A stretch of DNA of 64,000 bases from an uncultured Gammaproteobacteria bacterium (GCA_963783675.1 CAWAOU010000018.1:114627-178626); one strand, 5' to 3'; positions 13,130 to 55,310 are shown, counted from the stretch's first letter. Made by a program: numbers and translations. The notes: a model not told the origin generated them from the letters alone.

Positions 13130-13218
13130 CTGGCCACCCCGAACAACTTGGTCGCCATTTCCCGGCGCACGAGTGCACTATCCGAAACCCTGCCACCAAA
13201 CGCACAGGAGACAAACCC

Positions 13219-33352: not shown

Positions 33353-33503
33353 AAAGCGAAAGCAGGCATTTGCGTCAGGCAGACAGCAGGGAAAGGCAGT
33401 GACAACTCAGGGAGCCTCGGATCTATTGGTGAACGTTCATCCTGGGACAAGAATCTGCTTCGTTCAGAACCAATCAGAGGCGCCTCAGCCAAGCGGGGTA
33501 GCC

Positions 33504-33905
33504 TCACTCACCGTCCGCATCGGCGGCCGGATCGGACCGGTAAAATTGCTTGAAGTAGAAATCCTTCTGGCGAAGCTCCTGATACAGAGCCGCACGCTCC
33601 TCCACGCCTTGGCGCAGAATTCGGATCAGAGCCTTGGCCTGCTCCCCGTCCACCAAGTGCATTTGGCCGACCAGATCATGATCCGTTTCCAGAATATGGC
33701 CCTCCAGTTCCCCCGGCTGATCCAGATAGAGCAACATGGATGCACATTCCGGATCCTCCGGATCCAGCGGCTGAAACACCACCTTGCCCAGCCAGGCGAG
33801 TCTGGCCACCTGATTGAACTGTCCTAGATCGAACTTCTTGCCCTGTTTGTACTTGTTCAACTCATTGCGGATGGCGCCGAGATTGGTGACCTTGATGGAT
33901 TTCAT
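33504..33905 (-). CDS. Hypothetical protein
   Basis: 133 aa ORF, co-directional between the fadL-like and lplA-like genes. No recognisable motif. Confidence 0.5.
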   Translation of the reverse strand: MKSIKVTNLGAIRNELNKYKQGKKFDLGQFNQVARLAWLGKVVFQPLDPEDPECASMLLYLDQPGELEGHILETDHDLVGQMHLVDGEQAKALIRILRQGVEERAALYQELRQKDFYFKQFYRSDPAADADGE

Positions 33906-33963
33906 GCCCTTACCTCGACCGGCTCGCCGGACGGCTCACCACCGACCGGCGGCCGAAACCGGA

Positions 33964-35310
33964 TCAGAATCGCTTGGAGTAATTGAGGGACAGTTCGTAC
34001 TGCTTCATCTCGAGCTCAACATTCTGCGACGGATCAAAGGCGTTGGGGCCCTTGACCGACTCGGACGGCGCATACATAAAAGAAAAATCGATGCCGCTGT
34101 CGTCGCTGAGCGTCCGGGTGAAGCCAAAAGTGAAGTGCTGCTTGACCACCCCTGGGGCCAGAATATTGAACAGCACCTGGCTCTTCGGGATGGGTTGATC
34201 GTTGTATGAGTATCCCGCGCGCCAGGTCCATGCGGGGCTGGATTGCCATTGAAAACCCAGTTTATAGACATTTATGTTCTGCCAGCCGAAGCCGGGACCC
34301 TTGTTGCCGCCCAGCAGAAGATCGTTGTTTCCGGTCATCGCCCCCTGCATCAGGGAACTGGTATTCAGCTTATTGTGTATGGAATCCTCGTCGCTGTACC
34401 AGATGCGCTGCCAATCGAAAAACAGGGTCTTGGAGTCATCCACGTCCCAGGCCAGCCCCAGGCTTAAGGTGGATGGGATGTCGAAACTGCCTTGATTTGC
34501 GAACAGGCCCTTGTAGTCATCGAACTTGGTCATCCAGATTTTGCTCTGGTAGGCCAGCCCCAGATGCAAGCCGTCAACCACCTCGCCCTGGAGACCCAGG
34601 CGCACGCCCATGCCATAGGAAAAATCATGACCATTGTTGGTCAGTTTGTCCGGGTTGCTGGAGAACCCGAACTGACCGAAACGTCCCAACCCTTTTGCCT
34701 CAAACCATTGCATCGCCACAATGGGCGTCACCCCCCAGGAAAACTTCTCATTGATACGGCGCGAATACGTCGGGGAAATAAACAGCTGCATGAGATCAAC
34801 GCCGGTCTCGCCATCGCAGAAGGTGCCGCCCTGCCCCGGCGGAATACCGGTGCCCGGCGCCCCGGCCAACGCGCACGATGCATTGGAACTGTAGTCAGTG
34901 TTCATACCGCCGTTGCCGTATACCGCCACACCCCAGGAGGATTCTTCGTCAATCTCGCTGGCATAGCCGAAACTCGGCAGCAGGAAGTAGTTGGAGTCAC
35001 TGTCTTCCTTACCCTGTCCCAGGGGGAACGTGCCGGGCTGAAACGAGGGGTTGCCGCTGACGGTATACTTGCGGCGCGGGCTGAACAGGGCCGCCCCCAG
35101 ATCCCACTGATTGCCGATGTTGACCAGCCCGGCCGGGTTCATGGCCTGGGCCAGTGAGTCCTGAGGCTTGGCCACCCCGGCCCCGGCCAACCCTTTATGG
35201 ATGGTGCTGTAACCATTGGCGAAGTACCCGGTGGTGGCCTGGGCACCCGTCCCAGCCAGCAGGGCGAGACTCGCCGCACCCGCTGCAAGTAGGTGTGATA
35301 ACTTCCTCAC
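33964..35310 (-). CDS. FadL/TodX-family outer membrane transporter for hydrophobic compounds
   Basis: 448 aa. Signal peptide ending AQA. N-terminal hatch motif TTGYFANGYSTIHKGLAGAGVA. Beta-barrel with a C-terminal aromatic residue (YSKRF). Confidence 0.85.
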   Translation of the reverse strand: MRKLSHLLAAGAASLALLAGTGAQATTGYFANGYSTIHKGLAGAGVAKPQDSLAQAMNPAGLVNIGNQWDLGAALFSPRRKYTVSGNPSFQPGTFPLGQGKEDSDSNYFLLPSFGYASEIDEESSWGVAVYGNGGMNTDYSSNASCALAGAPGTGIPPGQGGTFCDGETGVDLMQLFISPTYSRRINEKFSWGVTPIVAMQWFEAKGLGRFGQFGFSSNPDKLTNNGHDFSYGMGVRLGLQGEVVDGLHLGLAYQSKIWMTKFDDYKGLFANQGSFDIPSTLSLGLAWDVDDSKTLFFDWQRIWYSDEDSIHNKLNTSSLMQGAMTGNNDLLLGGNKGPGFGWQNINVYKLGFQWQSSPAWTWRAGYSYNDQPIPKSQVLFNILAPGVVKQHFTFGFTRTLSDDSGIDFSFMYAPSESVKGPNAFDPSQNVELEMKQYELSLNYSKRF

Positions 35311-35489
35311 GATATCTGCTCCGTAATCTCTAACGCATGGTTTGTCGACGCAGACATCCCTGTCGACTCACCACATCCAAGCCACCACCTGGTCGATTCA
35401 CCAAATGTGCCGTTCCCTGCCGATGGGAACAAAAACCGGAGCTCTATTGCGTGCGCGGCCCCGTGCTTTTCCGGTCGATTTCTCTCTTG

Positions 35490-36644
35490 TCAATCCAGGT
35501 CTTCGTGATCCAGCGTGCCCACGTTCTCACCGGCCATCTGTCGACGGACGAACCCCACGTCGGAGGCGTTTAGCACAAACGGAAAGGACAGAATGTCCGC
35601 CGGGCTGGAATCCCCATAGGGTCGATTACAGGCCGACACTTCCTCATCGGATTTGCCTGGGCATCCGGAGGTTTGAAACGGTTTGCCGGATGCAATCAGC
35701 GATTCGAGTTCATTGCGATCAAGCCCAAAATCCACCACCCGACCTGCGTCGTCAAAGCGCATGTCATCTATCCGGCCGCCGGCATAATCGATGATGAATC
35801 GGGCGAGCTGCACGCGACGCCACTGATCCCGGGATACCGGATTCCAGTCTTCCATCATCGAGCCCTGCTCGGGGAAGAACGCGAACATGTGGTTGTGCCC
35901 ACCCAGGTCCCGTATGCGTTGGGCGATGTCGAGCATCTCCCGCTCGGTCTCACCCATGCCGCAGATCAGGTGAGCACCGAACTTCTCCGGGCCAAAGATC
36001 TCCGCCGCCCACTCGATGGCCTGCCAATACTTGCGCCAGGTGTGGGGGCTGTCCACGGTCTTGCCCCGGGTACGCTCGAAGATCTCCGGTGTGACCGCAT
36101 CCACCGCAACGGTGAAAATGTCCGCACCTTCGTCCCGCAGCCGCAGGATGTCGTCGCGATTCAGCGTGGTCGGATTGGACAGAATGGAAACCGGTATATG
36201 CGCGACCTGATCCACCCACTTACGCAGCAGCACAAAGGTGTCATGGTCCGAGTTGGGATGGGTGATCATGGAGATGCACATGCGCTCGAACTGACCCCGG
36301 TCATCCCCGCTTCGGACCCTCGCGATGACGTCGTCGTAGTGAACGGTGGGCCAATCCACGCGAATGAAATTACGGTCCGCATAGTCGCGTGATTCTTCAC
36401 GATGACGCGCCAGACCGCAGTAGCTGCAGTTGGCCCGGCAACCCTCCGGGTACGTCACCAGAAGGTTCAGACAATGGGTGCAGGCGGTGCGGTGCATGGT
36501 CCCCGGCACCAAGCCCAGGGTGATGGCGGCCGCAGTGGACAGCTGCACGTACTCCGGTGACCGCATATCCGGTGTCTGGATGTGATAGTCAGGCCGGTAG
36601 AAGGTTACCGGCGCTTCAGTTACCGAATCAGCCCTGACACTCAT
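35490..36644 (-). CDS. Radical SAM protein, LipS-type lipoyl synthase subunit (distal copy; LipS2 by position only)
   Basis: 384 aa. Radical SAM cluster motif CRANCSYCGL (CxxxCxxC). Located after the lipT-like gene, as in sHdr-associated lipoate assembly clusters. Confidence 0.75.
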   Translation of the reverse strand: MSVRADSVTEAPVTFYRPDYHIQTPDMRSPEYVQLSTAAAITLGLVPGTMHRTACTHCLNLLVTYPEGCRANCSYCGLARHREESRDYADRNFIRVDWPTVHYDDVIARVRSGDDRGQFERMCISMITHPNSDHDTFVLLRKWVDQVAHIPVSILSNPTTLNRDDILRLRDEGADIFTVAVDAVTPEIFERTRGKTVDSPHTWRKYWQAIEWAAEIFGPEKFGAHLICGMGETEREMLDIAQRIRDLGGHNHMFAFFPEQGSMMEDWNPVSRDQWRRVQLARFIIDYAGGRIDDMRFDDAGRVVDFGLDRNELESLIASGKPFQTSGCPGKSDEEVSACNRPYGDSSPADILSFPFVLNASDVGFVRRQMAGENVGTLDHEDLD

Positions 36645-36694
36645 GGGTGCATACTCCTGATATCCCGTTTCCTGCCGGCGTGACTGGGCCGACC

Positions 36695-37774
36695 TCAGGC
36701 AAAGTACTCGTCGAATGCGATCCAGCCCCGCCGCATTGCTGCGTCAGAACCGGCCATCGATGTCCGCCACACGGCGGCCAACTCAAGGCGCCGCGCCACC
36801 GCGCGATCCAGCGCAACCTGAAACTGGTCACGCATGTCTTCTTCGTAATCATCCAGGGCCGCATGGTCACCGCCCAACCAGGCCCGCGCCGCCGCACCGG
36901 CAGCCTCACCGGACACCACGGCAGCGTGGATTCCCGCGCCCGTAATGGGATGGGTCAGGCCGGCCGCGTCCCCCACAAACACCGCCGCGCCCCAATGGAG
37001 TTGCGAACGCAAACCGCCCACGGGAATCAATCCACCGGTGCGACCCAGAATGCGTCGGCCGACAATGCCGCGCTCCACCATGCTGGCGTGCAGTCGATCC
37101 AGGGGGCCTTTCAGATCACGGTCGTAGCGGCGATCAGCGCCCAGTCCGAGATTGGCGACCTCTCCCTTGGGAAACAGCCAGCCATAGCCGCCGGGGTAGT
37201 CATCGGACAGGAATACATCGGTGTCGCCGTAGGGCAACCGCAACGGTACCGTATATTGCCGGGTGTTGACCGTCTCCAGGGGTGTCAAACCAAGTTTCTC
37301 CGCAACCGATGAACCGGGTCCGTCGGCAGCGATCAACAGCCGATAGGCAATGCTTTCCAGGGCGCCGTTCTGGCGCCTTATCTGGGCCTGATTGCGCGCC
37401 GGGTCCAGATTCACCAGGCCGGCGCCGCTCCACAGCTCGGCGCCGGCCTGCCGGGCTCGAGCCGCGATGGCCTGATCAAAGCGGGCCCGGTCTATCATCA
37501 GACCGGGAAACTCGGTGGCTACGCGCGCATGGGAGGGCAACTCGGTTTGCATACCGTTGATCCGCTGAACCAGGACCCCGTCCTCACGGGCATATCCCCC
37601 CATGGGGTTGGGAATGAACTCCGCGCACTGAACCGGGCTGCCCAACTGCTGCTTGCGATCGATCCCAACAACGCTCAGGCCGGCCGCTGCCGCACTGGCG
37701 GCCGCACTGCCGCCACCGGGTCCCAGGCCGACGATCAGCAGGTCCACCTCACGGCGGCGCTGTGCTTCAGCCAT
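36695..37774 (-). CDS. Geranylgeranyl-reductase-like FAD-dependent oxidoreductase (LipT-type)
   Basis: FAD fingerprint DLLIVGLGPGGGSAAASAAAAG. Start is trimmed to the ATG at 37774, which overlaps the upstream stop in ATGGCTGA (8-nt overlap). Confidence 0.8.
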   Translation of the reverse strand: MAEAQRRREVDLLIVGLGPGGGSAAASAAAAGLSVVGIDRKQQLGSPVQCAEFIPNPMGGYAREDGVLVQRINGMQTELPSHARVATEFPGLMIDRARFDQAIAARARQAGAELWSGAGLVNLDPARNQAQIRRQNGALESIAYRLLIAADGPGSSVAEKLGLTPLETVNTRQYTVPLRLPYGDTDVFLSDDYPGGYGWLFPKGEVANLGLGADRRYDRDLKGPLDRLHASMVERGIVGRRILGRTGGLIPVGGLRSQLHWGAAVFVGDAAGLTHPITGAGIHAAVVSGEAAGAAARAWLGGDHAALDDYEEDMRDQFQVALDRAVARRLELAAVWRTSMAGSDAAMRRGWIAFDEYFA

Positions 37775-38273
37775 GGACCTGCTCCGGTGCCGAGGCAACC
37801 GCCGACCGGATCGCGGCAACCAGGTCAGCAGGCTCAAGCATCAACATCTGCACCGGGTACTGATCGAAAAAGCGACTGACATTGCGCTCCAACTCGGCCA
37901 GCGCCGTGTTTCGCAATGCGCTTTCCAGATCCACCACCACACGTCTGGGTGCGGCGAAAAAATCCCCGGTGATCCACACCTGGTTCAACCGTTGCCGAGG
38001 CTGGTCAAGCACCACCCCACAGCGCAGGGTGCCACCGCTGCACCGGTGGATCGCTTCACGCATCGGCGCCTCGGTGACCGGTCGATCGCGTTGATAGACC
38101 CAGTCGTCGCAGTCGATTTCTGCCAGCGCCTCGACATACAGGGCTTGTTCCGCCGAATTGAGTTCCGATGCAACTTCATACCGAGCGCCGAAAGCCTCGC
38201 CAAAGGCGTTCGCAAGTGCCTGTCTGACGGTATCCAGCGGTGGCGGAGATCCGAGCAGATCCTGCAGACTCAC
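37767..38273 (-). CDS. Lipoate-protein ligase sLpl(AB), C-terminal (LplB-like) domain portion
   Basis: 168 aa ORF aligning with the LplA C-terminal domain. Its reading frame stays open upstream and reads PAEKLSDKAIASARERV, continuing the homology of the preceding ORF. Confidence 0.75.
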   Translation of the reverse strand: MSLQDLLGSPPPLDTVRQALANAFGEAFGARYEVASELNSAEQALYVEALAEIDCDDWVYQRDRPVTEAPMREAIHRCSGGTLRCGVVLDQPRQRLNQVWITGDFFAAPRRVVVDLESALRNTALAELERNVSRFFDQYPVQMLMLEPADLVAAIRSAVASAPEQVHG

Positions 38274-38301
38274 GACCCGCTCGCGGGCGGAGGCGATGGC
38301 C

Positions 38302-38865
38302 TTATCCGACAGCTTCTCCGCCGGGAATCCTCAGCACGCGCAGCATCCGCTCAACGTCGAACGCCACCAGCACGGTACCCTGATAAAGTATGGAATCGCC
38401 GTCGAACGCGCCACCGGTGCCCGATATCTTCCGTCCTTCCACCTCGATGTCGTTACGCGGTCGAAAGCGGGCATCGACCCCCAGGCTGCTCAAACCAGCG
38501 GCAGCGGCCTCACAGATGCGTCGGGCGATGGTGGTCATGTCGGCGGTACCCAGCACCGCTTTGTCCAGAAACAGTTCCCAACCCAGATGCTCAGGCGCGA
38601 AGTAAATGGCGCCGCCCCCGGTCAGTCGCCGTTGGATCTCGATATCGTGGGCTCGGATGTAGTCGAGATTGAGCTCCTGCTCAACGTTCTGATGAAACCC
38701 CAGAAGCGCCGAAGCTTGGAAACGCAGGAAGCGCAGCGTATGCGGTGAAGTGCCGGCCTGATGGGACTCGAGCAACGCCCGGTCGATGGCGAAATTCTCC
38801 GCCGCCCGTCTCAAGCCGGTATCCAGCACTCGCCATTGAACCGGGTCTCGTGCCTTCACGGGCAA
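38302..38865 (-). CDS. Lipoate-protein ligase sLpl(AB), N-terminal catalytic domain portion
   Basis: 187 aa. Motifs: IQRRLTGGGAIYFAPEHLGWE and the catalytic-lysine block EGRKISGTGGAF. It ends ...RVLRIPGGEAVG*, exactly where a 1-nt shift would join it to the next ORF. Confidence 0.8.
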   Translation of the reverse strand: MPVKARDPVQWRVLDTGLRRAAENFAIDRALLESHQAGTSPHTLRFLRFQASALLGFHQNVEQELNLDYIRAHDIEIQRRLTGGGAIYFAPEHLGWELFLDKAVLGTADMTTIARRICEAAAAGLSSLGVDARFRPRNDIEVEGRKISGTGGAFDGDSILYQGTVLVAFDVERMLRVLRIPGGEAVG

Positions 38866-40040
38866 AAGGCGCCTTTGGAAGGGCTGGACAGCGGATCGTT
38901 GACGGCGGCAACCACCGGAATGCCACCCAGGCTTTTGGTCGGAACACGGCCACCTTGCCGGCGCTCGTGCTCCAGAACACGTTCAAGATCCACCAGCACC
39001 CCCCCATCATCCTCCAGCGCCATGACCTCCTCTCCCACCGCAATGGAGCAGCAGGCCGGCGTGACCTTGACCTGCCGGTCCAAGCGGGCCGCCAGTTCAA
39101 CCACCCCGTCGGACGGGTGGGCGATACCGTTCAAGCCCGCCAACACGGCATAGGCGTCGATTTGCATCTTGCTGATGCCCGGCGGCCTGGCACAGCCCAA
39201 CAGCAGAGGGGTGTCCGGCAAAGCCTCCCGCGCATCCATAAAAAAGCCGCCGACCGCATCGGAGTCAGGCGTGACAAACGGACGGTTTTCGGGCGCATAG
39301 AATGGCATCACTACCACCAGTACCACCGCATCGGGCAGGTGACGGCCAAGCATGCTGAGGGCATTCCACTCGCCCAGAAGCTGTCCATAGTGCAGGCCGA
39401 TGACGATATGGGGCACGACCTTCATGCTGGTTTTGACCAGGGATTCCAGGGTCGCCTCAAAATCGTCCACCGATCGCCGCAGATGATAGACCTGGGTAAT
39501 GGTGTCCTGGGCCCCGATCACGTCCATCATGGCTGCATCGACACCGGACTGTTCCATGCTGCGGGCCATGTCATCGGTCACCAGGGCGGTGTGCATGGCG
39601 ATGCGAAAATCGGGGTGGTCATCCTTCACCCGGCGGATGACCGGGTAGTACGCGTCGTACTCCACTTCGTTGCGGTGATTGGAACCGCCGGTGATCAGCA
39701 TCCCCTGCCCTCCCTGCTCAATCACCTCGTTGACCACCCGCCAGAGCGCCTCCGGTGTCCGCGCCGGCAGCATCGGCTCAAGTATTTTCGCCTTGCAGTG
39801 ATCACACTGCAGTTTGCAATCACTCCCGGTGATGGACACCGCCGGCCAGGCGCTTTTACCGCAGTCACGCAGTTCCGAACTCTGGAAGCTCTTGAAGGTG
39901 GGCGTGTAGAAGTGGATTCTGGTCGAAGCGTCCGCCCCCGATCGGCTCCAGCGCGTCTCCATTTGGCCCACCAGATCCCGATCAAAACTGACGTCTTCCA
40001 AGGCCTCTACCCGTCCCAGCGTATCAATCCACTGCCGCAT
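38856..40040 (-). CDS. Radical SAM protein, LipS-type lipoyl synthase subunit (proximal copy; LipS1 by position only)
   Basis: Radical SAM motif CKLQCDHC (CxxxCxxC). Start is trimmed to the ATG at 40040 (MRQWIDTLG...). 10-nt overlap with the ligase gene. Confidence 0.75.
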   Translation of the reverse strand: MRQWIDTLGRVEALEDVSFDRDLVGQMETRWSRSGADASTRIHFYTPTFKSFQSSELRDCGKSAWPAVSITGSDCKLQCDHCKAKILEPMLPARTPEALWRVVNEVIEQGGQGMLITGGSNHRNEVEYDAYYPVIRRVKDDHPDFRIAMHTALVTDDMARSMEQSGVDAAMMDVIGAQDTITQVYHLRRSVDDFEATLESLVKTSMKVVPHIVIGLHYGQLLGEWNALSMLGRHLPDAVVLVVVMPFYAPENRPFVTPDSDAVGGFFMDAREALPDTPLLLGCARPPGISKMQIDAYAVLAGLNGIAHPSDGVVELAARLDRQVKVTPACCSIAVGEEVMALEDDGGVLVDLERVLEHERRQGGRVPTKSLGGIPVVAAVNDPLSSPSKGAFCP

Positions 40041-40211
40041 GCCAATCACCATCTGCACCGAGCCACGCGGGCACAGTAAAACCGCACCCACGGGCGGTAT
40101 CGTTAAAGGATTCTCGCCATCTCACCGGCAACCAGCCAGGTGCGGGCCATACGACTCCGACGGACTCACGACCAGCGGACCCGGGGGATCCGCTGACCCG
40201 TCCAGGCTCGT

Positions 40212-40649
40212 TCAACAGCCTTCGAAACCCTCGGCGTCCATTTTCGCCTCGAACGCAGCCAGGGCGTCGGCTCCGGTCTTGAGCGCCCCCGACTCGCCAT
40301 CCCAATCCGAGGGCTGCAGCTTCACCAACCAACCCTCGCCATAGGGGTCCTCGTTGATCAAACCGGGATTGCCGGAGACCGCCTCATTGACTGCGGTCAC
40401 TTCACCGGCAACCGGCACCTTGGCCGGACCAACCCATTTGCCCGACTCGACGGTGGCGCAGGATTTATCCTGCTTGACCGACTTGCCGACTTTTTTCGGT
40501 GTGTAGGACACGATCTGCCCCGCCAACGAACAGGCGTATGAGGTCAGACCCACGGTCACGGCACCGTCATCCTCCCTCCGCGCCCACACATTGTTTTCCA
40601 CGTTGTAGATCAGGTCTTCAGGTACGTCGCAACCCCGTACGTCAGCCAT
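40212..40649 (-). CDS. lbpA: Lipoate-binding protein LbpA (GcvH-like), copy 2
   Basis: 145 aa from the ATG at 40649 (GGAGGA 8 nt upstream). GcvH fold with lipoyl-lysine motif TVESGKWVGPA. N-terminus MADVRGCDVPEDLIYNVENNVW. Confidence 0.85.
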   Translation of the reverse strand: MADVRGCDVPEDLIYNVENNVWARREDDGAVTVGLTSYACSLAGQIVSYTPKKVGKSVKQDKSCATVESGKWVGPAKVPVAGEVTAVNEAVSGNPGLINEDPYGEGWLVKLQPSDWDGESGALKTGADALAAFEAKMDAEGFEGC

Positions 40650-40928
40650 TGACGCGCTCCTCCAGAACTCAAGACAAACTCCCCGCCGGTCGCCCGCAGC
40701 CAACCAACGAACCCCCATGCGCCCTTGGCCTGATTTGAAACACCCCTGCCCAAGGCACGCTGCCAGGCGCCTGCGCGGTAGTAAAGGGAACGGTCTGCGG
40801 CACCGCCATTTCGGCCCGATTCCGCGATCCTCCTGGTCACATAGCGACGGCTATGCTTCTCGGACCATCCCGAAATCGTTCTCGAACTGGACAGCACCTC
40901 GCCTCATTCATTTCTACCGCGCAGACGC

Positions 40929-41327
40929 TTAGAACGAAACAACCTTATCGCAACTCAAGATCAAGTCTGCCAAAACTCCGGCGCCGGATACGTGATCCAC
41001 CTCATCAATCAGCGCATCTTCTTCCAGTTCGTAGCCTGGAAGCGCCGGGCGGCACACATGCAGGACGACCCCGGCGCGCTTGGCATCCCGTATAAACCCT
41101 ATTATCGTCTTGCCACCTTCCATGGCCACCAGCGCTTCGGCGACCCCCACCCGCATGAGATTGACGCCCTCCATGGTGAAGAAAATGTGCACCTCCGCGT
41201 CCATGGACGCCAGCAAGGCCCCAAGATAAAAGGGCGTCGCGCAGCGCTGTGGCGTGCTCGGTCCGCTGGTCACGACAAACACGACGGTTTGCTCGTCCTC
41301 ATCGTCAAGGTAGACATCCGGCTCCAT
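40929..41327 (-). CDS. DsrE/DsrF-family sulfurtransferase-like protein
   Basis: 132 aa. DsrE-like Rossmann pattern (VVFVVTSGP...) with a conserved-position Cys (LHVCRPAL). Confidence 0.7.
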   Translation of the reverse strand: MEPDVYLDDEDEQTVVFVVTSGPSTPQRCATPFYLGALLASMDAEVHIFFTMEGVNLMRVGVAEALVAMEGGKTIIGFIRDAKRAGVVLHVCRPALPGYELEEDALIDEVDHVSGAGVLADLILSCDKVVSF

Positions 41328-41330
41328 ACC

Positions 41331-41828
41331 CTATTCGGTCCTGCGCTCACACTGGATGTCTTCATTGCGCACGCGCTCGCAATAGCCCACGAACGCTGCG
41401 TCACCGGTGAGGAAATCGGCCAGCGCCAAGTCGGCGCCCCCGGTCGGTTCGACCCGGGAGATCCAGGCGCCGTAGGGGTCGGCGTTGAGCAGAGCCGGAT
41501 CGGCCAGCACCGCCGGGTTACCCTCGACGATGACGCAATCGAAGAAATTGGGGACCGGTCCCGCCCATTTCCCGCTTTCCACTGTGGCAACGGGTTTACC
41601 CGCCGGACGTCGGGTGCCGGGACGACGGACCCGAACATGAAGAATCTTGCCGGCCACGGTCTGGGAGATGTCCGTCATGCCAACGGTCAGCGTGCCGCCC
41701 TGCTCCCGCCGCACCCAGATCTGGAATTCGGGGTCATAGTGCAGCGTACCGATGAACTCACAGCCATTGCATGCCTGCATGCGGACCCCGGTGGTTGCGC
41801 CGATAATGTTCGGACGGTCTGACCTCAC
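41331..41828 (-). CDS. lbpA: Lipoate-binding protein LbpA (GcvH-like), copy 1
   Basis: Lipoyl-lysine motif TVESGKWAGPV. Alignment with copy 2 favours the internal ATG at 41780 (MQACNGCEFIGTLHYDPEFQIW) over GTG 41828. Confidence 0.85.
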   Translation of the reverse strand: MRSDRPNIIGATTGVRMQACNGCEFIGTLHYDPEFQIWVRREQGGTLTVGMTDISQTVAGKILHVRVRRPGTRRPAGKPVATVESGKWAGPVPNFFDCVIVEGNPAVLADPALLNADPYGAWISRVEPTGGADLALADFLTGDAAFVGYCERVRNEDIQCERRTE

Positions 41829-41831
41829 CCA

Positions 41832-42743
41832 TCAGATGATGCGCTTTTCCTTCAACAAGCCGATGGAATCGCTGACGTTCTCGTGGATTCCGAGCTTGCG
41901 TGGCGATAAACCCATGGCCAAGCCCAGAAGTTGGGTAAAGTAGATAATCTTCGGCGTGGTACGGATACCAAACTCGGTTTCCGCACGCACCTGGTGCATC
42001 TCCAGCCCGGAATGACAGGTCGGGCATTCGGTGGCGATCACCTCCGCGCCGCTCTCCTCCGCTGACTGCAACAGGTTCAATACCAACTGGGTGGACGTGT
42101 CGGCGTCCGACAGGGTGTGGGCACCGCCGCAACAAGCCGTCTTTAACGCGAAATCCGTATTGACCGCCCCGGCCGATGCCAGCAGATCGTCCATGAAGTG
42201 CGGCTTATATGTGGATTCCGAATCGGGGCCCTGGTCTTTCTCCGGAAAAATCTGCCGAGGCCGTGTGTACATACAGCCGTAGTAGTTGGCCACCTTGAGG
42301 CCGTTCAATTGTTTGGTCATGCGCTCCCTGATACCCGCCGGACCCAACTCCTCCATCAGCCATTCCAGCACATGCAGGGTGCGCACGTTGCCGGTGTAGA
42401 CCGGATCATCCGCCTTGCGCGCCAGCTCCTGCACTGTGCTCAAGGCATCGTCAGACGTTGCCAGTTCAAACTCGGCTTTCTTCAGATTGTGGTAGCAGCC
42501 ATTACACGGTGCCATGACCGTGTCCAAGCCCATCTGTTCGGTCGCGATGGCCAGGTTGCGGGCCGACAGGTAGGTCTGCAGCATGGGGTGAACATTCTTC
42601 ACTTCCATGGCCCCGCAACAGTTGTAGTCCCGCAGGTTTTCCATCTCCAGATCCAGCGCATTCACCAGGGCGCGGGTGGACTTGTCGTACGGGCCACCGG
42701 ACCCTTCCAGGGCACAACCCGGATAGTAGGCAACCTTAGCCAT
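41832..42743 (-). CDS. hdrB2: sHdr subunit HdrB2 (CCG-domain protein)
   Basis: 303 aa with two CCG-type cysteine motifs (YNCCGAMEV; KTACCGGAHT). Confidence 0.85.
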   Translation of the reverse strand: MAKVAYYPGCALEGSGGPYDKSTRALVNALDLEMENLRDYNCCGAMEVKNVHPMLQTYLSARNLAIATEQMGLDTVMAPCNGCYHNLKKAEFELATSDDALSTVQELARKADDPVYTGNVRTLHVLEWLMEELGPAGIRERMTKQLNGLKVANYYGCMYTRPRQIFPEKDQGPDSESTYKPHFMDDLLASAGAVNTDFALKTACCGGAHTLSDADTSTQLVLNLLQSAEESGAEVIATECPTCHSGLEMHQVRAETEFGIRTTPKIIYFTQLLGLAMGLSPRKLGIHENVSDSIGLLKEKRII

Positions 42744-43452
42744 GAGCGGCCTCCTTCTGTTCGCGCACGTACTGCTGCAGTACCTCGCCGGTCCGGCCCC
42801 AGGATTTGGTCTTGGGCGGAAACAGCATGTTGAGGCCCATCCGCAGCATTTGAGCGATGGGCAGGCCCTTGGTCATGCGTTTGCCGAACTCCACCAACCA
42901 TCCCTGCATCAGCGGCTGACCGGTCTTCTTGAAAAAATGCATCAACACGTGGCTGTCTTCGATCCGGCCAGTCTTGAAAATCTGATCGGCGAACTCTTCG
43001 TCGAAGTGGGTGGAGGGTGATTTATCGGTGATTCCCTGGTCCTCCATCCAGTGTGCCAGCGCCTTCATCACGCCCTCGGGCCGCACATCCTTGGGGCAGA
43101 TGTTCGTGCACTTATTGCAGGACACGCACTGCCAGATGATGTCTTTGTCCTTGATCAACTCTTCCTTGAGGCCCAACCGCGTCAGGTAAATCCAGTAGCG
43201 CGGATTAAACTGGGTATTCTGCGCGTACATGGTGCAGGCGTTGGTGCACGACCCACATTGCCAGCAGCGATGCACGTACTCGCCGCCACCGTAGGCCTGG
43301 ATCGTCTTCTCGAAATGCTCGTCGTAATCACGCAGCGTGCGCGGTGTGATCATGGTGTTCCAGTGGCCCGAAACATCCACCCCGTCCACGACCAGGTCAT
43401 CGGACTCCAGCAGACGCTCCGGCTCGATCAACGACTTCTCATGAATCGCCAT
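42736..43452 (-). CDS. hdrC2: sHdr subunit HdrC2 (4Fe-4S dicluster protein)
   Basis: Two ferredoxin-type motifs, CWQCGSCTNAC and CVSCNKCTNICP. 8-nt overlap with hdrB2. Confidence 0.85.
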   Translation of the reverse strand: MAIHEKSLIEPERLLESDDLVVDGVDVSGHWNTMITPRTLRDYDEHFEKTIQAYGGGEYVHRCWQCGSCTNACTMYAQNTQFNPRYWIYLTRLGLKEELIKDKDIIWQCVSCNKCTNICPKDVRPEGVMKALAHWMEDQGITDKSPSTHFDEEFADQIFKTGRIEDSHVLMHFFKKTGQPLMQGWLVEFGKRMTKGLPIAQMLRMGLNMLFPPKTKSWGRTGEVLQQYVREQKEAAHG

Positions 43453-43488
43453 CAGTGGGTCTCCAAATTTGTCTGTTCTTGCGCCGCA

Positions 43489-44328
43489 TCAGTGGCCCTT
43501 CGGGTTGCGTCTGACCCTGGATCGCCCACCGCGCCGGGCGGGCTCGATCCCCAATAGCTTGACCACAAACTCCAGCGGATCTGCCTTGGCGCCGAGTTCC
43601 CCGGTCACCATGCCGGCGTTGAACGACATAGCCTGCATGTAGTCCGAGTAAGCCTGGGCCAGCGTCAGGTCTATCAGAAACGGAATCTCACGGTAGTAGC
43701 CACGCTCGGCCAGCTGATCCGCGATCCAATCCCTGGCTTGTTCATAGGTGCCGGTGTCTCCACCCAGCGGCACTTCGCGCAATCCATCGGAACCCCGAAT
43801 CAACTCCCGCAATGCACCCGCTTCGGTGGCCGGGTCCCAGATCCACCGGGTCATCAGCGGACAGCGTTCCGGCGCTCGGAAATGCAGGCACTCCGCCGCA
43901 AAATCCCAGGCAGCGCGTTTGATCTTGCGATCACCGCCGGTGGGCGCAGCCTCAGCAAAAGCCCGGATCCGCTCCAAAGAATCGGTGTCCTCATCCAACA
44001 GGGCTTTGAGTAAACCCTGCCTTTCTTCCAAAGCCATGCTCATAAACGGACCGGCAAACTTGCGACGGGCCGTAAACATGTGCTCAAACATCGCCATGCA
44101 TGCGTCCTGATCCAGCCGGGCAGCCTCTGTACCGCCGATCAGATCCTCGAACAACGTCTGCTTGGCCGCCAGCGATTCGATGTAGTGCTCCACACCCAAG
44201 CCGGCACCCATGTGTTCGATGAGGTGATCGAACTTGCTGCCCAAGATGGCCGAGTCATAGGGTGGTTGGCGCTTCGGCGGCTCGTTTGCCCCCCCATCGC
44301 CCCTATCCTGCTTCGCGAACCAAGGCAT
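43489..44328 (-). CDS. Conserved hypothetical protein of sHdr clusters (Hyp)
   Basis: 279 aa with no cofactor motif. Occupies the invariant position between hdrA and hdrC2. Confidence 0.7.
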   Translation of the reverse strand: MPWFAKQDRGDGGANEPPKRQPPYDSAILGSKFDHLIEHMGAGLGVEHYIESLAAKQTLFEDLIGGTEAARLDQDACMAMFEHMFTARRKFAGPFMSMALEERQGLLKALLDEDTDSLERIRAFAEAAPTGGDRKIKRAAWDFAAECLHFRAPERCPLMTRWIWDPATEAGALRELIRGSDGLREVPLGGDTGTYEQARDWIADQLAERGYYREIPFLIDLTLAQAYSDYMQAMSFNAGMVTGELGAKADPLEFVVKLLGIEPARRGGRSRVRRNPKGH

Positions 44329-45355
44329 ATAGATCCGCTACGGCACGCGCGCCCGCCGTGTGTCCCTGGGAAATGGAGTCGTCTATAGTTTCAGGTCCGT
44401 ACGCCGCGCCGGCGGAATAAATCCCCTGCCGGGTCGTGCCGCAACTGTTGGTGTAGTGCTCGGCTCGGGCAAGGAATCCATGCTTTTCCAGCCCCACTCC
44501 GAACACCCGGGAGATGTCCGGATTGTCTTCGTTTGGGTCCATGCCGATGGCGTGAACCACAAGGTCGAAGGGAATGACGATGGGGCGCTTAACCAGCGTG
44601 TCCTCACCCTTTACCAGCAAGCGGCCATCACCGGATGCGGTCACCTCAGCGATGCGCGCCTTGACATATTTGGTCTTAAACTCTTCCTGAGATTTCCAGT
44701 AAAACTTGTCCTCGTACAATCCGAAGGTCCGGATGTCCATGTAGTAGATGAACACATCGGTTTCGGGCGACAGCTCCTTGATCTCCATCGCCAGGTTGGA
44801 CGACACGGTACAGCAAATCTTCGAGCACCATTCGCGACCGATTTGACGGTCACGGGAACCGACACAGAGCAGAATCGCAACCCGCTTCGGCACTCGACCA
44901 TCTGAAGGGCAACGTATCTCGCCGGCGCCCACCATCTGTTCCATCTGCGTGGTGGTGAGCACGTCTTCAAAGGTGCCAAAGCCCCACTCGGGCTTATTGA
45001 TGGGATCGAAATGGGTGAAGCCGGTACCGAGTACAATCGCGCCGGCGCTGACGGTTTCACCGTTGCTCAACGTGGCGTTGAAATTGCCGGGCTCACCCTC
45101 GAGCCGAGTGACCTTGGCAGCGGTGTGGACGCTCACGTTGGCGTCGTCAACGACCCGGGTGACCATGCGCCCGATGGCGTCCTTGGCCCACTCGCCGGAG
45201 GGCACCAGCTTGGCGTACCCCGACAGGATGGGCGCCCCACCCAGCACGTCTTCCTTCTCCACCACGACGGCGTTGAATCCCGAAGCACTGACGGTGGCCG
45301 CCGCCGACAGGCCGGCTGGACCACCACCCACCACCAGAACGGTGCTCTGCATCAC
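44303..45355 (-). CDS. hdrA: sHdr subunit HdrA (FAD-dependent, Fe-S binding)
   Basis: 350 aa. FAD fingerprint VLVVGGGPAGLSAA and a Cys cluster including WCSKICC. Confidence 0.85.
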   Translation of the reverse strand: MMQSTVLVVGGGPAGLSAAATVSASGFNAVVVEKEDVLGGAPILSGYAKLVPSGEWAKDAIGRMVTRVVDDANVSVHTAAKVTRLEGEPGNFNATLSNGETVSAGAIVLGTGFTHFDPINKPEWGFGTFEDVLTTTQMEQMVGAGEIRCPSDGRVPKRVAILLCVGSRDRQIGREWCSKICCTVSSNLAMEIKELSPETDVFIYYMDIRTFGLYEDKFYWKSQEEFKTKYVKARIAEVTASGDGRLLVKGEDTLVKRPIVIPFDLVVHAIGMDPNEDNPDISRVFGVGLEKHGFLARAEHYTNSCGTTRQGIYSAGAAYGPETIDDSISQGHTAGARAVADLYALVREAG

Positions 45356-46764
45356 GCGGTTCCTCCGTAAGCGAGTTCCGGGTTGTACAAATGTTCGATG
45401 TTCCCGGCTTCAACCTCCTTGAGGTAGGCCTGAAACCGCAGCTTGGACTCATCCCAGGAAATCCCCATCTGCTCCACCAGTTCCTCGCAGGGCGATGCGT
45501 GCCACTGGAGTTGGACGATCTTGAACGGATCTGCACCGCAAGCCAGAGCCGCGAACTGGACCTCTGCCATAATCGGCATGGTGAAATTCTGCTCGTGGCT
45601 GCGACCAATCCACTGGTTTTTGTCCATGGTGGTAACGCATCCGGTGTCGTTGGCCAACATGACGTCGGCCTTGGCCTCTTCCCGCGCCACGCGAATCTTC
45701 CGGTCCATGGTGAAGGAACGCGTGAACTCCCGCTCGGAGATGATGTGGCGAAAACCGAAGCCGCAGCAGTCATACCAGGTGGAGTAGTCGATAACCTGGG
45801 CACCCAAAGCCTGAGCAGTAGAGGTGATAATCGCCGTCCGGTTCCCGCCCAGCACGGTGGGATCGTATACCGCGTCCTCATGCACCATTTTGTAATAATG
45901 ACACGCCACATGGGTGGTGGTGCGGATGTGGGAAACATCTATCGTCTGCAATTCCGAGGCGATGCGATCGCGCATCACATGCACCCATTCCGAGTAGTGG
46001 ATAATCTCCTCGGGAATGACCAGCTTGCCATCCACCAGTCGCCCCAGTTTGCCCAGGATCTTGGTGACCTTCTCGCGCAGCTCCGCCGACTCGATCAGGT
46101 ACTTGCGAATCTCTTTGTAATTGCCGAACGAGGTGCCGCAGTGCACCAGCGGGAAGAAATGGCCAGGCTCATAGCCAAAGCGGTTACCGGAGACATAGGC
46201 CTGATGGAAATTACGCAGAAACACCGCCGCCAGTGACTCGACATTGCCGATACCGGAACCGTGGTAATTCCAAGCCGTGCAGGAGGTCTGATCGGTCTCG
46301 TCCAGATAGTCCTTGCCCGGCTCAAAACCAAACTTGTTCATGAACCACAGCAGCGAAGTGGGGTAGCCCGGAATGTTGCCGCATTGACCGCAGGACTTAT
46401 GGTGCCAGAGCTGCCGCGTCGGTACTTTCTTGTCCCAACCAAACAGCGTGCTGACCGACTTTGGATCATGGCCGTCGTTGATTCGGTGAACGATGATCTC
46501 GCCCTCCTTTTCCAACTGCCACATATGGTCCCGCACATCGTCCATACGATCGCCCAGGTCCACGGTGCGGCGATCCACATGCTTGCGGACCCACTCTGTG
46601 GCGGTCACCGCGTCCTCGGCGGACAGGTCAGTGGCCTGGAAAAACGAGCCGTGACCAGCCACACCCTGACCATCGGTATTGTGGAACCCGGGTTTCATGG
46701 TGCCGGCACCCGCACCCTCGGGTGATACGTTGTGATGCCCGGGTTTTTGATCCTTGGAACTCAT
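45352..46764 (-). CDS. hdrB1: sHdr subunit HdrB1 (CCG-domain protein)
   Basis: 470 aa. Cys-rich CCG-type motifs (WYDCCGFGFRH; VHCGTSFGNY). 4-nt overlap with hdrA. Confidence 0.85.
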   Translation of the reverse strand: MSSKDQKPGHHNVSPEGAGAGTMKPGFHNTDGQGVAGHGSFFQATDLSAEDAVTATEWVRKHVDRRTVDLGDRMDDVRDHMWQLEKEGEIIVHRINDGHDPKSVSTLFGWDKKVPTRQLWHHKSCGQCGNIPGYPTSLLWFMNKFGFEPGKDYLDETDQTSCTAWNYHGSGIGNVESLAAVFLRNFHQAYVSGNRFGYEPGHFFPLVHCGTSFGNYKEIRKYLIESAELREKVTKILGKLGRLVDGKLVIPEEIIHYSEWVHVMRDRIASELQTIDVSHIRTTTHVACHYYKMVHEDAVYDPTVLGGNRTAIITSTAQALGAQVIDYSTWYDCCGFGFRHIISEREFTRSFTMDRKIRVAREEAKADVMLANDTGCVTTMDKNQWIGRSHEQNFTMPIMAEVQFAALACGADPFKIVQLQWHASPCEELVEQMGISWDESKLRFQAYLKEVEAGNIEHLYNPELAYGGTA

Positions 46765-46822
46765 ATGGCTTTACTCCGATGAACGTCCGGTCGGTCTGTC
46801 TGGTTTGGCTCGGCCGATGCCC

Positions 46823-47506
46823 TCAATCGTCTTCCTGTTCTTCCAACCAATCGTCGTACTCTTCCTTCTTCTCGTCGATGAAGTCCTCGATCACATCGAA
46901 CAGGTTCTCATCCATGAGTGCGAGCGAATCCAGCACGCCGGTCATCTCCCAGATGGTGTACATCTCCACCGAGGTCTTGAGCGAGATTTCCCAGGCCGTG
47001 TCTGTGGTTTGCAGCGTCTGCATCGGAATCGCTTTGCGGAGCACTTTGAGGTCCCCCTCCACCTTCTGAATGTTGGGGCCCCAATCCGGGAAGTGGTCGG
47101 GTTGGATCATGTCGGGTGAAAGCTGGTTGCCTGTGGTGATCAGCTTGAGCATCACCCGTCCGAAAGGCCGGAGCACATCCTTGGCCGATTGCATCTCATG
47201 CTTGATCGCTACCTCACGCATGATGGCGACCAGCCCCCCCGGGGAGTTTTTGAACGGGCAGCGAGCGGCGCAGGTCATGCACTGGGCACAGGCCCAGATC
47301 TTCTCCTGCATGGCGTCGTAGATTTGCTCCACGTTCTCGGTCCAAAGCAGTTGGACGATTTCCCGGGGGCTATAGTCGTAGAATTGCGCCGACGGACAGG
47401 TGGCCGTGCAGATGCCACAATTCAAGCAGCCGTTCAACTCATGGTCGTAGCGGAAATCCCCACGAATATCTTCGAAAATCTGCTGCATTTCGGCATAGCT
47501 CGCCAT
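46823..47506 (-). CDS. hdrC1: sHdr subunit HdrC1 (4Fe-4S dicluster protein)
   Basis: Motifs CLNCGICTATCP and CAQCMTCAARCP. Confidence 0.85.
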   Translation of the reverse strand: MASYAEMQQIFEDIRGDFRYDHELNGCLNCGICTATCPSAQFYDYSPREIVQLLWTENVEQIYDAMQEKIWACAQCMTCAARCPFKNSPGGLVAIMREVAIKHEMQSAKDVLRPFGRVMLKLITTGNQLSPDMIQPDHFPDWGPNIQKVEGDLKVLRKAIPMQTLQTTDTAWEISLKTSVEMYTIWEMTGVLDSLALMDENLFDVIEDFIDEKKEEYDDWLEEQEDD

Positions 47507-47589
47507 AACCTACCCTCGCGTCAGGAACACTGCCTAGGACTGTGACATGGCGGCACAGTCACCGGTTCACCCTGCTCTCCGTACATGCG

Positions 47590-48060
47590 CTAAATGTACA
47601 GGCAGATGTCGGACTCACCCGCGAACTCGAAGAACGTCGCGGCACCGCCGTACTCAATGCCATCGATGAACTCGTTGGTGGGCATATCAAACAGGTCGAC
47701 CGTCATTTGACAGGCGATCATCTTTACCTCGGCCTCCATGCACAACTCGCGCAGTTCGTCGACGCTGGCGACCCCTTTCGATTTCATTTTCTTTTTCATC
47801 ATCGAGGTCATCATGCCCTGCATTCCGGGCAGAGTTTGCATCAAAACCGGCACTGGCATCGGCATGGGCATGGCTGGGTTGCCGACCGAGGTCACCTTGA
47901 GATCCAGATCTTTCTTCAGCAGCTGGAGTCCGTAGAAGGTAAAGAAAATCTGGGTCTCATAGCCCAAGGCGGCGGCCGTGGACGCAAGTATGAACGGGGG
48001 GTAAGCCCAATCCAGACTGCCCTTGGTCGCGATAATAGCGAGCTTCTTTTCATCCGACAT
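47590..48060 (-). CDS. dsrE3: DsrE3-type (DsrE family) sulfurtransferase
   Basis: 156 aa. DsrE-family pattern (KLAIIATKGSLDWAYPP) with a conserved Cys in MIACQMT. Adjacent to tusA. Confidence 0.75.
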   Translation of the reverse strand: MSDEKKLAIIATKGSLDWAYPPFILASTAAALGYETQIFFTFYGLQLLKKDLDLKVTSVGNPAMPMPMPVPVLMQTLPGMQGMMTSMMKKKMKSKGVASVDELRELCMEAEVKMIACQMTVDLFDMPTNEFIDGIEYGGAATFFEFAGESDICLYI

Positions 48061-48116
48061 AATGCAACTCCAGTGGCTCTGCCCTGATCAGCAGACGCTG
48101 CCTGCCGATTGATCGA

Positions 48117-48353
48117 TCAGGATTTTTTGAGCAGAAAGTAGAACTTGCCGCCCTCTTCCTTGGACTCCAGCAAATCGTTGCCGGTCTGTTTGGCAAAGGC
48201 TTCAAAGTCCTTGATGGCGCCCGGGTCGGTGGCAATGATGTGCAGCACCTGGCCGGAGTCAATGCCGGCCAGCGCCTTCTTCGCTTTCAGAATCGGCAGG
48301 GGGCAGTTCAGACCAGAGGCGTCGAGCTCGGCGTCAAAGCTTGCCATGATCAC
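48117..48353 (-). CDS. tusA: TusA-family sulfur carrier protein
   Basis: 78 aa with the diagnostic motif DASGLNCPLPILKAKKAL. Confidence 0.9.
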   Translation of the reverse strand: MIMASFDAELDASGLNCPLPILKAKKALAGIDSGQVLHIIATDPGAIKDFEAFAKQTGNDLLESKEEGGKFYFLLKKS

Positions 48354-48609
48354 ATCTCCTATTCGATTGTCCAGAAATAGCCATGAGGCATTTAAGAAAT
48401 GCCTTATATGCTAACGTAGCATCGCGCTCAAGTTGCACTGCAGCATGTAGCCATATGTTATAGGCATGGTGCGTTTGGCGGCTGTACCCTACCCCCGCAA
48501 TTATCACCGAAAGTTTATCGCATTAGTGTATCGCGATATACTTCTATACTGTCAAGGTCGGCGCCATCGCGCATTCAAATCATACTCGCTCAAACAACCG
48601 AGGTGTCCC

Positions 48610-48915
48610 ATGCTTAAAGAGGATTTCGAAGAGAGCACGCGCTATGCTCTCACCGTACGGCGCAAATCGGGCAAGCTGCAGCCGGCGAACGTCTATGTAT
48701 ACCGTCGGTTCGACGAGTTTATGATTGTGCGCAACACGCAGGATAGTGGGCTGTTGGAAAAGCTGCGCTATGAAGATGTGCAGAAAATTGTGCGGTCGGC
48801 GCCGGTCCCACCGGCCAAGCAATTGGCCATGCCAGACGCGTTGCTACAGCCAAAATTCTGGGCGGAGCGTGAGTTCGTGGAGGCCTACTCATCCTCCCCT
48901 TCCGTCGGCAAGTAG
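48610..48915 (+). CDS. Hypothetical protein, divergent from the tusA-sHdr operon
   Basis: 101 aa from the ATG at 48610 (GAGG 5 nt upstream). The longer track ORF from 48466 spans the AT-rich promoter region and is unlikely. Confidence 0.45.
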   Translation: MLKEDFEESTRYALTVRRKSGKLQPANVYVYRRFDEFMIVRNTQDSGLLEKLRYEDVQKIVRSAPVPPAKQLAMPDALLQPKFWAEREFVEAYSSSPSVGK

Positions 48916-49023
48916 TGGATGCAAACAGATTGTCCCTACGGCTTGGCGGGAGCTGACGCCGCCAGTTCCGACGATTGAACCCGGGGCACTGCGAGGGGTC
49001 ATAAAGTTATGATGAGCGACTGA

Positions 49024-50475: not shown

Positions 50476-50670
50476 ACCTCAGATTAATAATATTTATGGG
50501 CTTGAAAGCAGAATTAGGATGCACGCCCGAACGGATGCATTACTCTGGGAAAGTGCGCCTGAGGACCTTGCCAGCTATAAGCAGTCGGGTATTCTGGAGC
50601 GCATCGGGCCGTTGGGTATCTTCGCAGCCATTAGTTGCGCGGCCATGAAAACCAAAGCGAGGAAAGAAAT

Positions 50671-51039: not shown

Positions 51040-51080
51040 GCCAAAATGATGAATCGAACCTCAACGGAGGATACGCAGCC

Positions 51081-51554: not shown

Positions 51555-51598
51555 TCCGAGCCGGTTGAATTTGATACAGAACGTCAGGAGGCAAAACG

Positions 51599-51907: not shown

Positions 51908-51944
51908 AAACCGTGCTGCAGCACAATAAGAACGGTGAAGAGTA

Positions 51945-54747: not shown

Positions 54748-54756
54748 GGGCCATGC

Positions 54757-55251: not shown

Positions 55252-55310
55252 TTTCTCCGCACCAGGTTCGTTGACTGCGGTACCGGTCAGCTGACCGGTA
55301 CCGCCTGGGG

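Follow-up and report, generated by a model that had tools for sequence, protein, structure and literature searches.

A probable type I sHdr-LbpA cluster for sulfur oxidation and lipoate assembly in an uncultured gammaproteobacterium

Among the gene clusters for cytoplasmic sulfur oxidation that combine heterodisulfide-reductase-like (sHdr) subunits with lipoate-binding proteins (LbpA), type I is defined by the gene order shdrC1B1AHC2B2 (Tanabe 2024, PMC11094781). The arrangement hdrC1B1A-hyp-hdrC2B2-lbpA1-dsrE-lbpA2 is present in 73 of 75 Thioalkalivibrio genomes, with the dsrE gene of the operon placed between lbpA1 and lbpA2 (Berben 2019, PMC6382920). Where an organism carries two lbpA genes, one encodes LbpA1 and the other LbpA2, as is the case of TK90_0638 and TK90_0640, which are accompanied by the ligase TK90_0642, and in the proteobacterial "group I" arrangement the maturation genes belong to the same operon (Cao 2018, PMC6067878). 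The same work established that LbpA cannot substitute for GcvH and that the ligase is specific for LbpA. Related to this, the lipS1-slpl(AB)-lipT-lipS2 system has been reconstituted, the fatty-acid transporter gene next to it has been named lipY, and the deletion of slpl(AB) has the same effect as the deletion of lbpA2 in Hyphomicrobium denitrificans (Tanabe 2023, PMC10332631). The DsrE proteins have also been classified: sulfur transfer from DsrE3B to TusA has been shown, and dsrE3B genes usually adjoin the shdr core genes (Tanabe 2024, PMC11094781). The present work deals with a locus of this kind contained in a stretch of 64,000 nucleotides (the window) from an uncultured Gammaproteobacteria bacterium (GCA_963783675.1, CAWAOU010000018.1:114627-178626).

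Gene content of the cluster and comparison with known systems

Fifteen co-directional genes are located on the minus strand of the window between positions 35490 and 48353, in the order tusA, dsrE2, shdrC1B1A-H-C2B2, lbpA1, dsrE3B, lbpA2, lipS1, slpl(AB), lipT and lipS2, according to the list of open reading frames (ORFs), Pfam and NCBIfam. This bears out the number, strand and order of genes given in a preliminary description of the same DNA. The co-directional array runs past 35490 through four further genes, to 31974. As judged from homology and gene order, the locus very probably represents a type I sHdr-LbpA cluster of the standard form, which would serve sulfur oxidation in the cytoplasm and brings its own genes for lipoate assembly; its host would be a sulfur-oxidising gammaproteobacterium with Thioalkalivibrio and Ectothiorhodospira among its relatives. 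Systems of this architecture, with two LbpA copies and an internal DsrE, are common and have been published, whereas one extra C in the ligase gene and a 165-nucleotide (nt) palindromic repeat between dsrE3B and lbpA2 are peculiarities of this sequence or its lineage and not features of the design. The locus thus extends the several hundred genomes in which sHdr-LbpA is known by one uncultured gammaproteobacterium and raises no new question about the pathway; its practical worth lies in three annotation corrections, which concern the ligase frameshift, the mobile repeat in the spacer and the DsrE2 beside tusA. The genes of the cluster are as follows (lengths in amino acids, aa; FAD, flavin adenine dinucleotide; SAM, S-adenosylmethionine):

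48117-48353, minus strand: tusA, sulfur carrier with Cys17 in a CPLP motif (Pfam TusA, E value 2.3e-23)
47590-48060, minus strand: gene 2, DsrE2-type sulfurtransferase (NCBIfam NF047629 DsrE2, 297 bits against a cut-off of 210; Pfam DrsE_2)
46823-47506, minus strand: shdrC1, ferredoxin-like subunit with two [4Fe-4S] motifs, 85-95% identical in related loci
45352-46764, minus strand: shdrB1, CCG-domain protein of 470 aa (Pfam CCG)
44303-45355, minus strand: shdrA, short FAD/[4Fe-4S] flavoprotein, matching PDB 6TJR
43489-44328, minus strand: shdrH ("hyp"), conserved protein with no family match
42736-43452, minus strand: shdrC2, ferredoxin-like subunit (Pfam, NCBIfam and motifs)
41832-42743, minus strand: shdrB2, CCG-domain protein (Pfam CCG, E value 8.8e-25, two stretches) with two complete CCG motifs
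41331-41780, minus strand: lbpA1, GcvH-like lipoate-binding protein of 149 aa with ESGKW and Lys71 (Pfam GCV_H), start as in the relative L083 described below
40929-41327, minus strand: putative dsrE3B, internal DsrE3-type sulfurtransferase (Pfam DsrE) with Cys92 as candidate active-site residue
40212-40649, minus strand: lbpA2, GcvH-like lipoate-binding protein of 145 aa with ESGKW and a C-terminal Cys (Pfam GCV_H, E value 4.4e-36)
38856-40040, minus strand: lipS1, radical-SAM lipoyl synthase subunit of 394 aa with CKLQCDHC (CX3CX2C)
37767-38859, minus strand: slpl(AB), lipoate:protein ligase with an N-terminal LplA-B_cat domain and a C-terminal LplB-like domain, carrying a +1 frameshift
36695-37774, minus strand: lipT, FAD oxidoreductase of the geranylgeranyl-reductase family, 359 aa (TIGR02032, 182 bits against a cut-off of 158.8)
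35490-36644, minus strand: lipS2, radical-SAM lipoyl synthase subunit with CRANCSYC (CX3CX2C)

The gene order shdrC1-B1-A-H-C2-B2 is that of type I, and no domain of the type II markers shdrB3, etfAB and emo was found with Pfam and NCBIfam among the ORFs between 31974 and 48353. Overlaps had been described as numerous and of 4-10 nt; they do exist, at five of the 14 junctions, and their range is 4-26 nt (hdrB1/hdrA 4, hdrA/hyp 26, hdrC2/hdrB2 8, lipS1/ligase 4, ligase/lipT 8). Several start codons were moved inward on the basis of relatives and called genes: lbpA1 to 41780, lbpA2 to 40649, lipS1 to 40040, the ligase to 38859 and lipT to 37774. The ATG of lbpA2 at 40649 is accompanied by a GGAGGAG Shine-Dalgarno sequence, and the genes called in L083 and in the same-species contig L081 also encode 145 aa. 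In the case of tusA, the true start is likely to be 48347, which gives a protein of 76 aa as in the 76-aa gene of L083.

No database record with exactly the sequence of HdrB2 was found. A scan with HdrB2 over one genome per species yielded 80 related loci, in which the identity is 77-87%; their hosts are Thioalkalivibrio, Ectothiorhodospira, Acidihalobacter, Sulfuriferula and Acidithiobacillus, together with many uncultured Gamma- and Betaproteobacteria. A tblastn comparison with all the proteins of the window revealed the same order in essentially every locus of sufficient length, including lbpA, dsrE, lbpA, lipS1, the ligase gene, lipT and lipS2.

The closest described system is that of Thioalkalivibrio sp. 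K90mix (TK90_0631 to about TK90_0645; Cao 2018, Tanabe 2023 and 2024), which shares tusA, shdrC1B1A-H-C2B2, lbpA1, dsrE3B, lbpA2, lipS1, slpl(AB), lipT, lipS2 and lipY with the window. The proteins of the Thioalkalivibrio loci are 60-94% identical to those of the window, and two genes found here downstream of the cluster (133-aa and LplA-like) are present in most of these loci whose flank reaches far enough. On the other hand, the Thioalkalivibrio loci show no dsrE2 between tusA and shdrC1, the ligase is intact, and the spacer between dsrE3B and lbpA2 measures 31-40 nt in most loci (62 nt in L015) instead of the 279 nt of the window. The uncultured relative L083 (metagenome-assembled genome (MAG) GCA_024641125.1, contig JAHEDQ010000002.1) has the same 19 genes, in the same order and with the same lengths, from an M48 peptidase to an IclR regulator, at a DNA identity of 85-89%; it differs in being without the 165-nt insertion, so that its spacer is of 108 nt, and in having an intact ligase of 363 aa. 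The locus of the genetic model H. denitrificans (Hden_0683-0698) shares the core shdrC1B1A-H-C2B2 as well as LbpA2, LipS1, LipS2, LipT and sLpl(AB). According to the published descriptions, however, it has only one LbpA (LbpA2), DsrE3C in place of DsrE3B, the lip order lipS1-lipT-lipS2-slpl(AB)-lipX, and in addition sHdrI, the regulator sHdrR and SoxT transporters.

The core subunits agree with this picture. All the diagnostic motifs named in the preliminary description were found by a motif script: HdrC1 and HdrC2 contain two CX2CX2CX3C motifs each, HdrB2 contains two full CCG motifs, HdrB1 contains one CCG and is otherwise divergent, and HdrA contains GGGPAG and the cluster cysteines, so that the HdrC and HdrB proteins show the motifs of type I sHdr subunits. 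HdrA aligns end to end (residues 5-349, E value 6.9e-145) with sHdrA from H. denitrificans (PDB 6TJR), and both proteins share an identical CVGSRDRQIGREWCSKICCTVS cluster segment. It therefore has the short sHdrA form (about 350 aa, FAD and one Fe-S cluster) and is nearer to the H. denitrificans protein than to HdrA from methanogens. The identification of the locus as an sHdr-LbpA sulfur-oxidation cluster with lipS1-slpl(AB)-lipT-lipS2, of the kind known from the Dahl laboratory, is upheld by this full-length match and by the lipoyl lysines kept in both LbpA proteins; the lack of a modifiable lysine in LbpA, which had been named as a sign to the contrary, is not found. Catalysis has been proposed to take place in sHdrB1.

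The protein sHdrH is still described as of unknown function in the sHdr literature. No match was obtained for it in Pfam or NCBIfam. Its AlphaFold (AF2) model, built with 53 homologues, is all-helical, with a predicted local distance difference test score (pLDDT) of 87 and a predicted template modelling score (pTM) of 0.86; neither Foldseek against PDB nor a profile search of PDB sequences returned anything significant for this fold. Its conservation (35-44%) is far below that of the neighbours (60-95%), and there is no invariant cysteine among the 53 homologues, which speaks against sHdrH being a persulfide carrier or an Fe-S protein.

Lipoate-binding proteins, sulfurtransferases and proposed pathway

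Both LbpA proteins consist of a single GcvH-like lipoyl domain encoded beside shdr genes, with ESGK at residues 68-71 as located by script. Their positions match those of TK90_0638 (LbpA1) and TK90_0640, each copy is 61-80% identical to its positional counterpart in 76 loci, and the second copy is more GcvH-like than the first, as published. The paralogue labels LbpA1 and LbpA2 used here are predictions from position and similarity. A sequence search of PDB with both LbpA proteins turned up no LbpA crystal structure. The two copies had been taken as non-canonical; nevertheless, two lbpA genes flanking dsrE are the gammaproteobacterial norm, both in the literature and in the 76 related loci. 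The maturation genes form the set lipS1-slpl(AB)-lipT-lipS2, with radical-SAM motifs in both synthase subunits.

Gene 2 is of the DsrE2 type because its NF047629 score is above the cut-off and its best PDB match, over the full length, is 2QS7 (3MC3 matches only in part). The structure 2QS7 corresponds to DsrE2B (Tanabe 2024, PMC11094781). The internal DsrE, in turn, has a sole PDB match, 3MC3 (DsrE3A), also over its full length, and its assignment to the sub-class DsrE3B is inferred from position. The names dsrE3 for gene 2 and dsrE-like for the internal gene, as first given, were therefore in effect swapped. With regard to the distribution of dsrE2, the Thioalkalivibrio loci L003, L005-L011 and L013 have no such gene between tusA and shdrC1, and the window, Ectothiorhodospira and many MAGs have one; this agrees with the numbering of the TK90 locus tags.

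The steps of the pathway have been shown in H. denitrificans, Thioalkalivibrio sp. K90mix, Thiorhodospira sibirica and Aquifex aeolicus, and are transferred to this locus by homology and synteny. Sulfane sulfur left by periplasmic Sox proteins would enter the cytoplasm, where DsrE2 and DsrE3B would relay it as persulfide to TusA. TusA would then deliver it to LbpA1/LbpA2 and the sHdrAA'B1C1B2C2 complex, with oxidation to sulfite. As for the maturation of LbpA, sLpl(AB) would put octanoate or lipoate on the ESGKW lysine of both proteins, LipS1 and LipS2 would insert the sulfurs with electrons supplied by LipT, and LipY would probably import the fatty acid.

The ligase frameshift and alternative readings

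Some observations weigh against an operative cluster of this type. The best NCBIfam model for LipS1 (NF053742) gives 193.9 bits, below its cut-off of 230, and the best one for LipS2 (NF053743) gives 198 bits, below 270. Above all, the ligase gene is out of frame in the window sequence, which makes it doubtful that the cluster is "complete" there, as had been stated; should the frameshift be genuine, lipoylation of LbpA may fail. The site is the following:

38323-38325, minus strand: frameshift site, CCC in the window and CC in three same-species contigs and in L083

The ligase gene, in which the motifs RRLTGGG and GRKISGTG are present (script), is split into two ORFs, 38302-38865 and 37767-38273, which lie in different frames. 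At the junction, frame 0 reads MLRVLRIPGGEAVG followed by a stop, and the next frame reads AEKLSDKAIASARERVVSLQDLLG, whereas relatives read MLRVLRIPAEKLSDKAIASARERV without break. Only one base, within conserved codons (RIP/AEKLSDK), sets the two frames apart. One uninterrupted ligase ORF of about 350 aa is present in 69 of 71 relatives, and the rejoined protein is 99% identical to the intact 363-aa protein P0001 from public assemblies. Three contigs of the same species, L081 (ENA), L082 (Logan) and L147 (Joint Genome Institute (JGI) metagenome), share 99.3-99.7% DNA identity with the window. Each of them differs from it by a single indel, the extra C of the window at 38323-38325, and in the case of L147 this is the sole indel over 14.8 kb. 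The intact single polypeptide with catalytic and LplB-like domains is thus found in L081, L082 and L147 and not in the window. The frameshift either arose in assembly or is a null mutation of very recent date that only the window sequence carries, and the split ligase, first presented as a special feature of the locus, comes down to a 1-nt insertion that is found neither in the three same-species contigs nor in 69 of the 71 relatives.

A genuine recent mutation of the strain, with loss of the dedicated ligase and either a disabled pathway or lipoylation of LbpA taken over by a different enzyme (for example the LplA-like paralogue at 32360-33352), is the less favoured of the two origins, although it keeps a real share of the probability. 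The extra C is present in the sequence as given, the lack of any other indel against L147 over 14.8 kb means that the window is not an indel-riddled assembly, and the conserved second LplA-like gene downstream keeps its RxLGGG and catalytic Lys motifs intact. On the contrary, three independent contigs of the same species carry the intact allele, all the other genes of the cluster are intact, and the ligase sequence beyond the frameshift retains 99% identity with the intact alleles, so that there is no decay. Length changes in short C/G runs are frequent among assembly errors. Moreover, the paralogue co-occurs with intact sLpl(AB) in relatives and is consequently not a replacement, and a frameshift mutation would be costly because the loss of slpl(AB) abolishes the pathway in H. 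denitrificans (PMC10332631).

It is highly improbable that the two ORFs, the second of which has an LplB-like domain (NF053749, E value 7.8e-12), constitute an evolved two-subunit enzyme like archaeal LplA and LplB, and such a design was rejected: the break, at residue ~181, lies inside the catalytic domain, which aligns to LplA from Thermoplasma (T. acidophilum) through residue ~228, the LplB-like domain begins only ~100 residues further on, the two frames are one base apart within conserved codons, and the split is neither at a domain boundary nor conserved in the relatives and same-species contigs. The "split ligase" is therefore unfit for annotation as two subunits and should be treated as a suspected assembly error or null allele.

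Finally, there is next to no likelihood that the Hdr-like genes encode a reductive or bifurcating Hdr, a Qmo or a Flx-type complex, or that the GcvH-like and lip genes have their role in glycine cleavage or in general lipoylation. There are certainly similarities, since the window proteins resemble weakly the models for methanogen HdrABC and QmoC, and GcvH; methanogenic HdrABC (PDB 5ODC, 8RVU) also comprises an HdrA with FAD and Fe-S clusters, an HdrC with two [4Fe-4S] clusters and an HdrB whose CCG domains hold non-cubane clusters. Nevertheless, the scores obtained with the methanogen Hdr and Qmo equivalogs are all far below the cut-offs (HdrB2 157/345, HdrC1 86/270, QmoC 71/300, HdrA 236/1100), which sets the window proteins apart from these equivalogs. 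HdrA from methanogens is about 650 aa long and has extra domains, and only residues ~100-340 of the window protein, which is of the short sHdrA form, align with it (match at ~102-340, E value about 1e-59). HdrB1, with its 470 aa, is only weakly similar to methanogen HdrB (2e-8). Besides, the methanogenic enzyme reduces the heterodisulfide of coenzymes M and B (CoM-S-S-CoB) and is without LbpA, TusA and DsrE partners, whereas the genes of the window are tightly linked to tusA, dsrE and soxXYZA. The inability of LbpA to replace GcvH and the LbpA-specific ligase (PMC6067878) speak likewise against a role in general lipoylation.

The spacer repeat, the downstream genes and the surroundings

With the corrected start of lbpA2, the spacer between dsrE3B and lbpA2 measures 279 nt, compared with 9-154 nt in 76 relatives, and it has no similarity to their spacers. 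The excess over L083 is a stretch of 165 nt directly 3' of the dsrE3B stop codon. This element and its copies, as located by BLAST, are listed below (MITE, miniature inverted-repeat transposable element; REP, repetitive extragenic palindromic):

40764-40928, no strand assigned: palindromic MITE/REP-like repeat of 165 nt, inserted at the dsrE3B stop codon
L139, 3386-3554: copy of the element
L109, 3320-3486: copy of the element
L127, 1872-2038: copy of the element
L147, 9887-10057: the element in place at the same-species locus

The element has 18-nt inverted ends, (CTAG)GCGTCTGCGCGGTAGAAA, and folds into one long hairpin (z = -3.0). There is no second copy of it within the window. Copies were sought by a metagenome scan seeded on the end sequence and then by BLAST, and near-full-length ones, 93-96% identical, were found; they occupy at least three further genomic contexts (L139/L159/L086/L108; L109; L127), all of them in JGI metagenome contigs. 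The presence of copies in other contexts, together with the absence of the element from the 88%-identical relative L083, indicates that it is a small mobile or repeated palindromic element and not a conserved part of the pathway. The structured spacer had been counted among the features of the cluster; it turns out to be an inserted repeat and not a regulatory RNA of the pathway. Its interpretation as a conserved pathway element was rejected given the variable length and dissimilarity of the spacers of relatives, the absence from L083 and the copies in unrelated contexts. Its interpretation as a known riboswitch or small RNA was rejected as well, since an Rfam scan of 32000-49500 with E <= 1 gave no match. 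Scans for promoters and terminators gave counts no higher than in shuffled sequence. Hairpins of this kind can lower read-through, and the element might do so towards lbpA2 and the lip genes. As a separate observation, two short stretches of the window, 13071-13131 and 19250-19301, have 85-90% identity to sequences flanking the element in L139, L159, L086 and L108, and may represent another small repeat family.

The four genes that follow lipS2 are these:

33964-35310, minus strand: equivalent of lipY (named so in PMC10332631), FadL/TodX-type outer-membrane transporter (Pfam Toluene_X, E value 2.2e-24)
33504-33905, minus strand: protein of 133 aa, first gene of an unnamed trio (31974-33905)
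32360-33352, minus strand: second LplA-like enzyme, 330 aa, second gene of the trio
31974-32363, minus strand: protein of 129 aa, third gene of the trio

These extension genes had also been regarded as non-canonical, a view that does not hold, as they recur in many relatives and one of them already has a name. Among the 52 related loci with at least 3 kb past lipS2, the FadL gene is present in at least 35, the 133-aa gene in at least 29 and the LplA-like gene in at least 20, these counts being lower bounds because the flanking sequence was truncated. The 133-aa and LplA-like genes co-occur downstream of the lip genes in Thioalkalivibrio, Sulfuriferula, Acidithiobacillus and Burkholderiales MAGs, and the 129-aa gene is otherwise seen in L083 only. 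The LplA-like paralogue shares only 24% identity with sLpl(AB), and the RxLGGG and lysine motifs are retained across 23 homologues of its family. Apart from lipY, no name for these genes appears in the sHdr and lip literature searched, which does not prove that the trio is undescribed. There is a slim chance that the trio assists in LbpA maturation or repair as an accessory arm not yet described and that, if the frameshift is real, the LplA-like paralogue keeps LbpA lipoylated; in that event, the strain with the frameshift would be a natural test of the paralogue. The trio is the sole lead of some wider interest in the locus, as it accompanies such clusters in sulfur oxidisers of several orders.

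As regards the genomic context, the sox genes, which are the usual partner of the cytoplasmic pathway for sulfane-sulfur oxidation, are close to the cluster without being members of it:

50635-52772, plus strand: soxXYZA, periplasmic thiosulfate oxidation (four NCBIfam equivalogs above their cut-offs)

soxX, soxY, soxZ and soxA are situated 2.3 kb upstream of tusA on the opposite strand, and neither soxB nor soxCD was found among the ORFs searched beside them (to ~58 kb). Upstream of tusA there is also a small divergent ORF (48466-48915) with no family match, the last 101 codons of which correspond in position to a 101-aa gene of L083. Polyhydroxyalkanoate genes (52866-56060), coding for a PhaC-like protein, a PhaR repressor and an acetoacetyl-CoA reductase, are located beside the sox genes.

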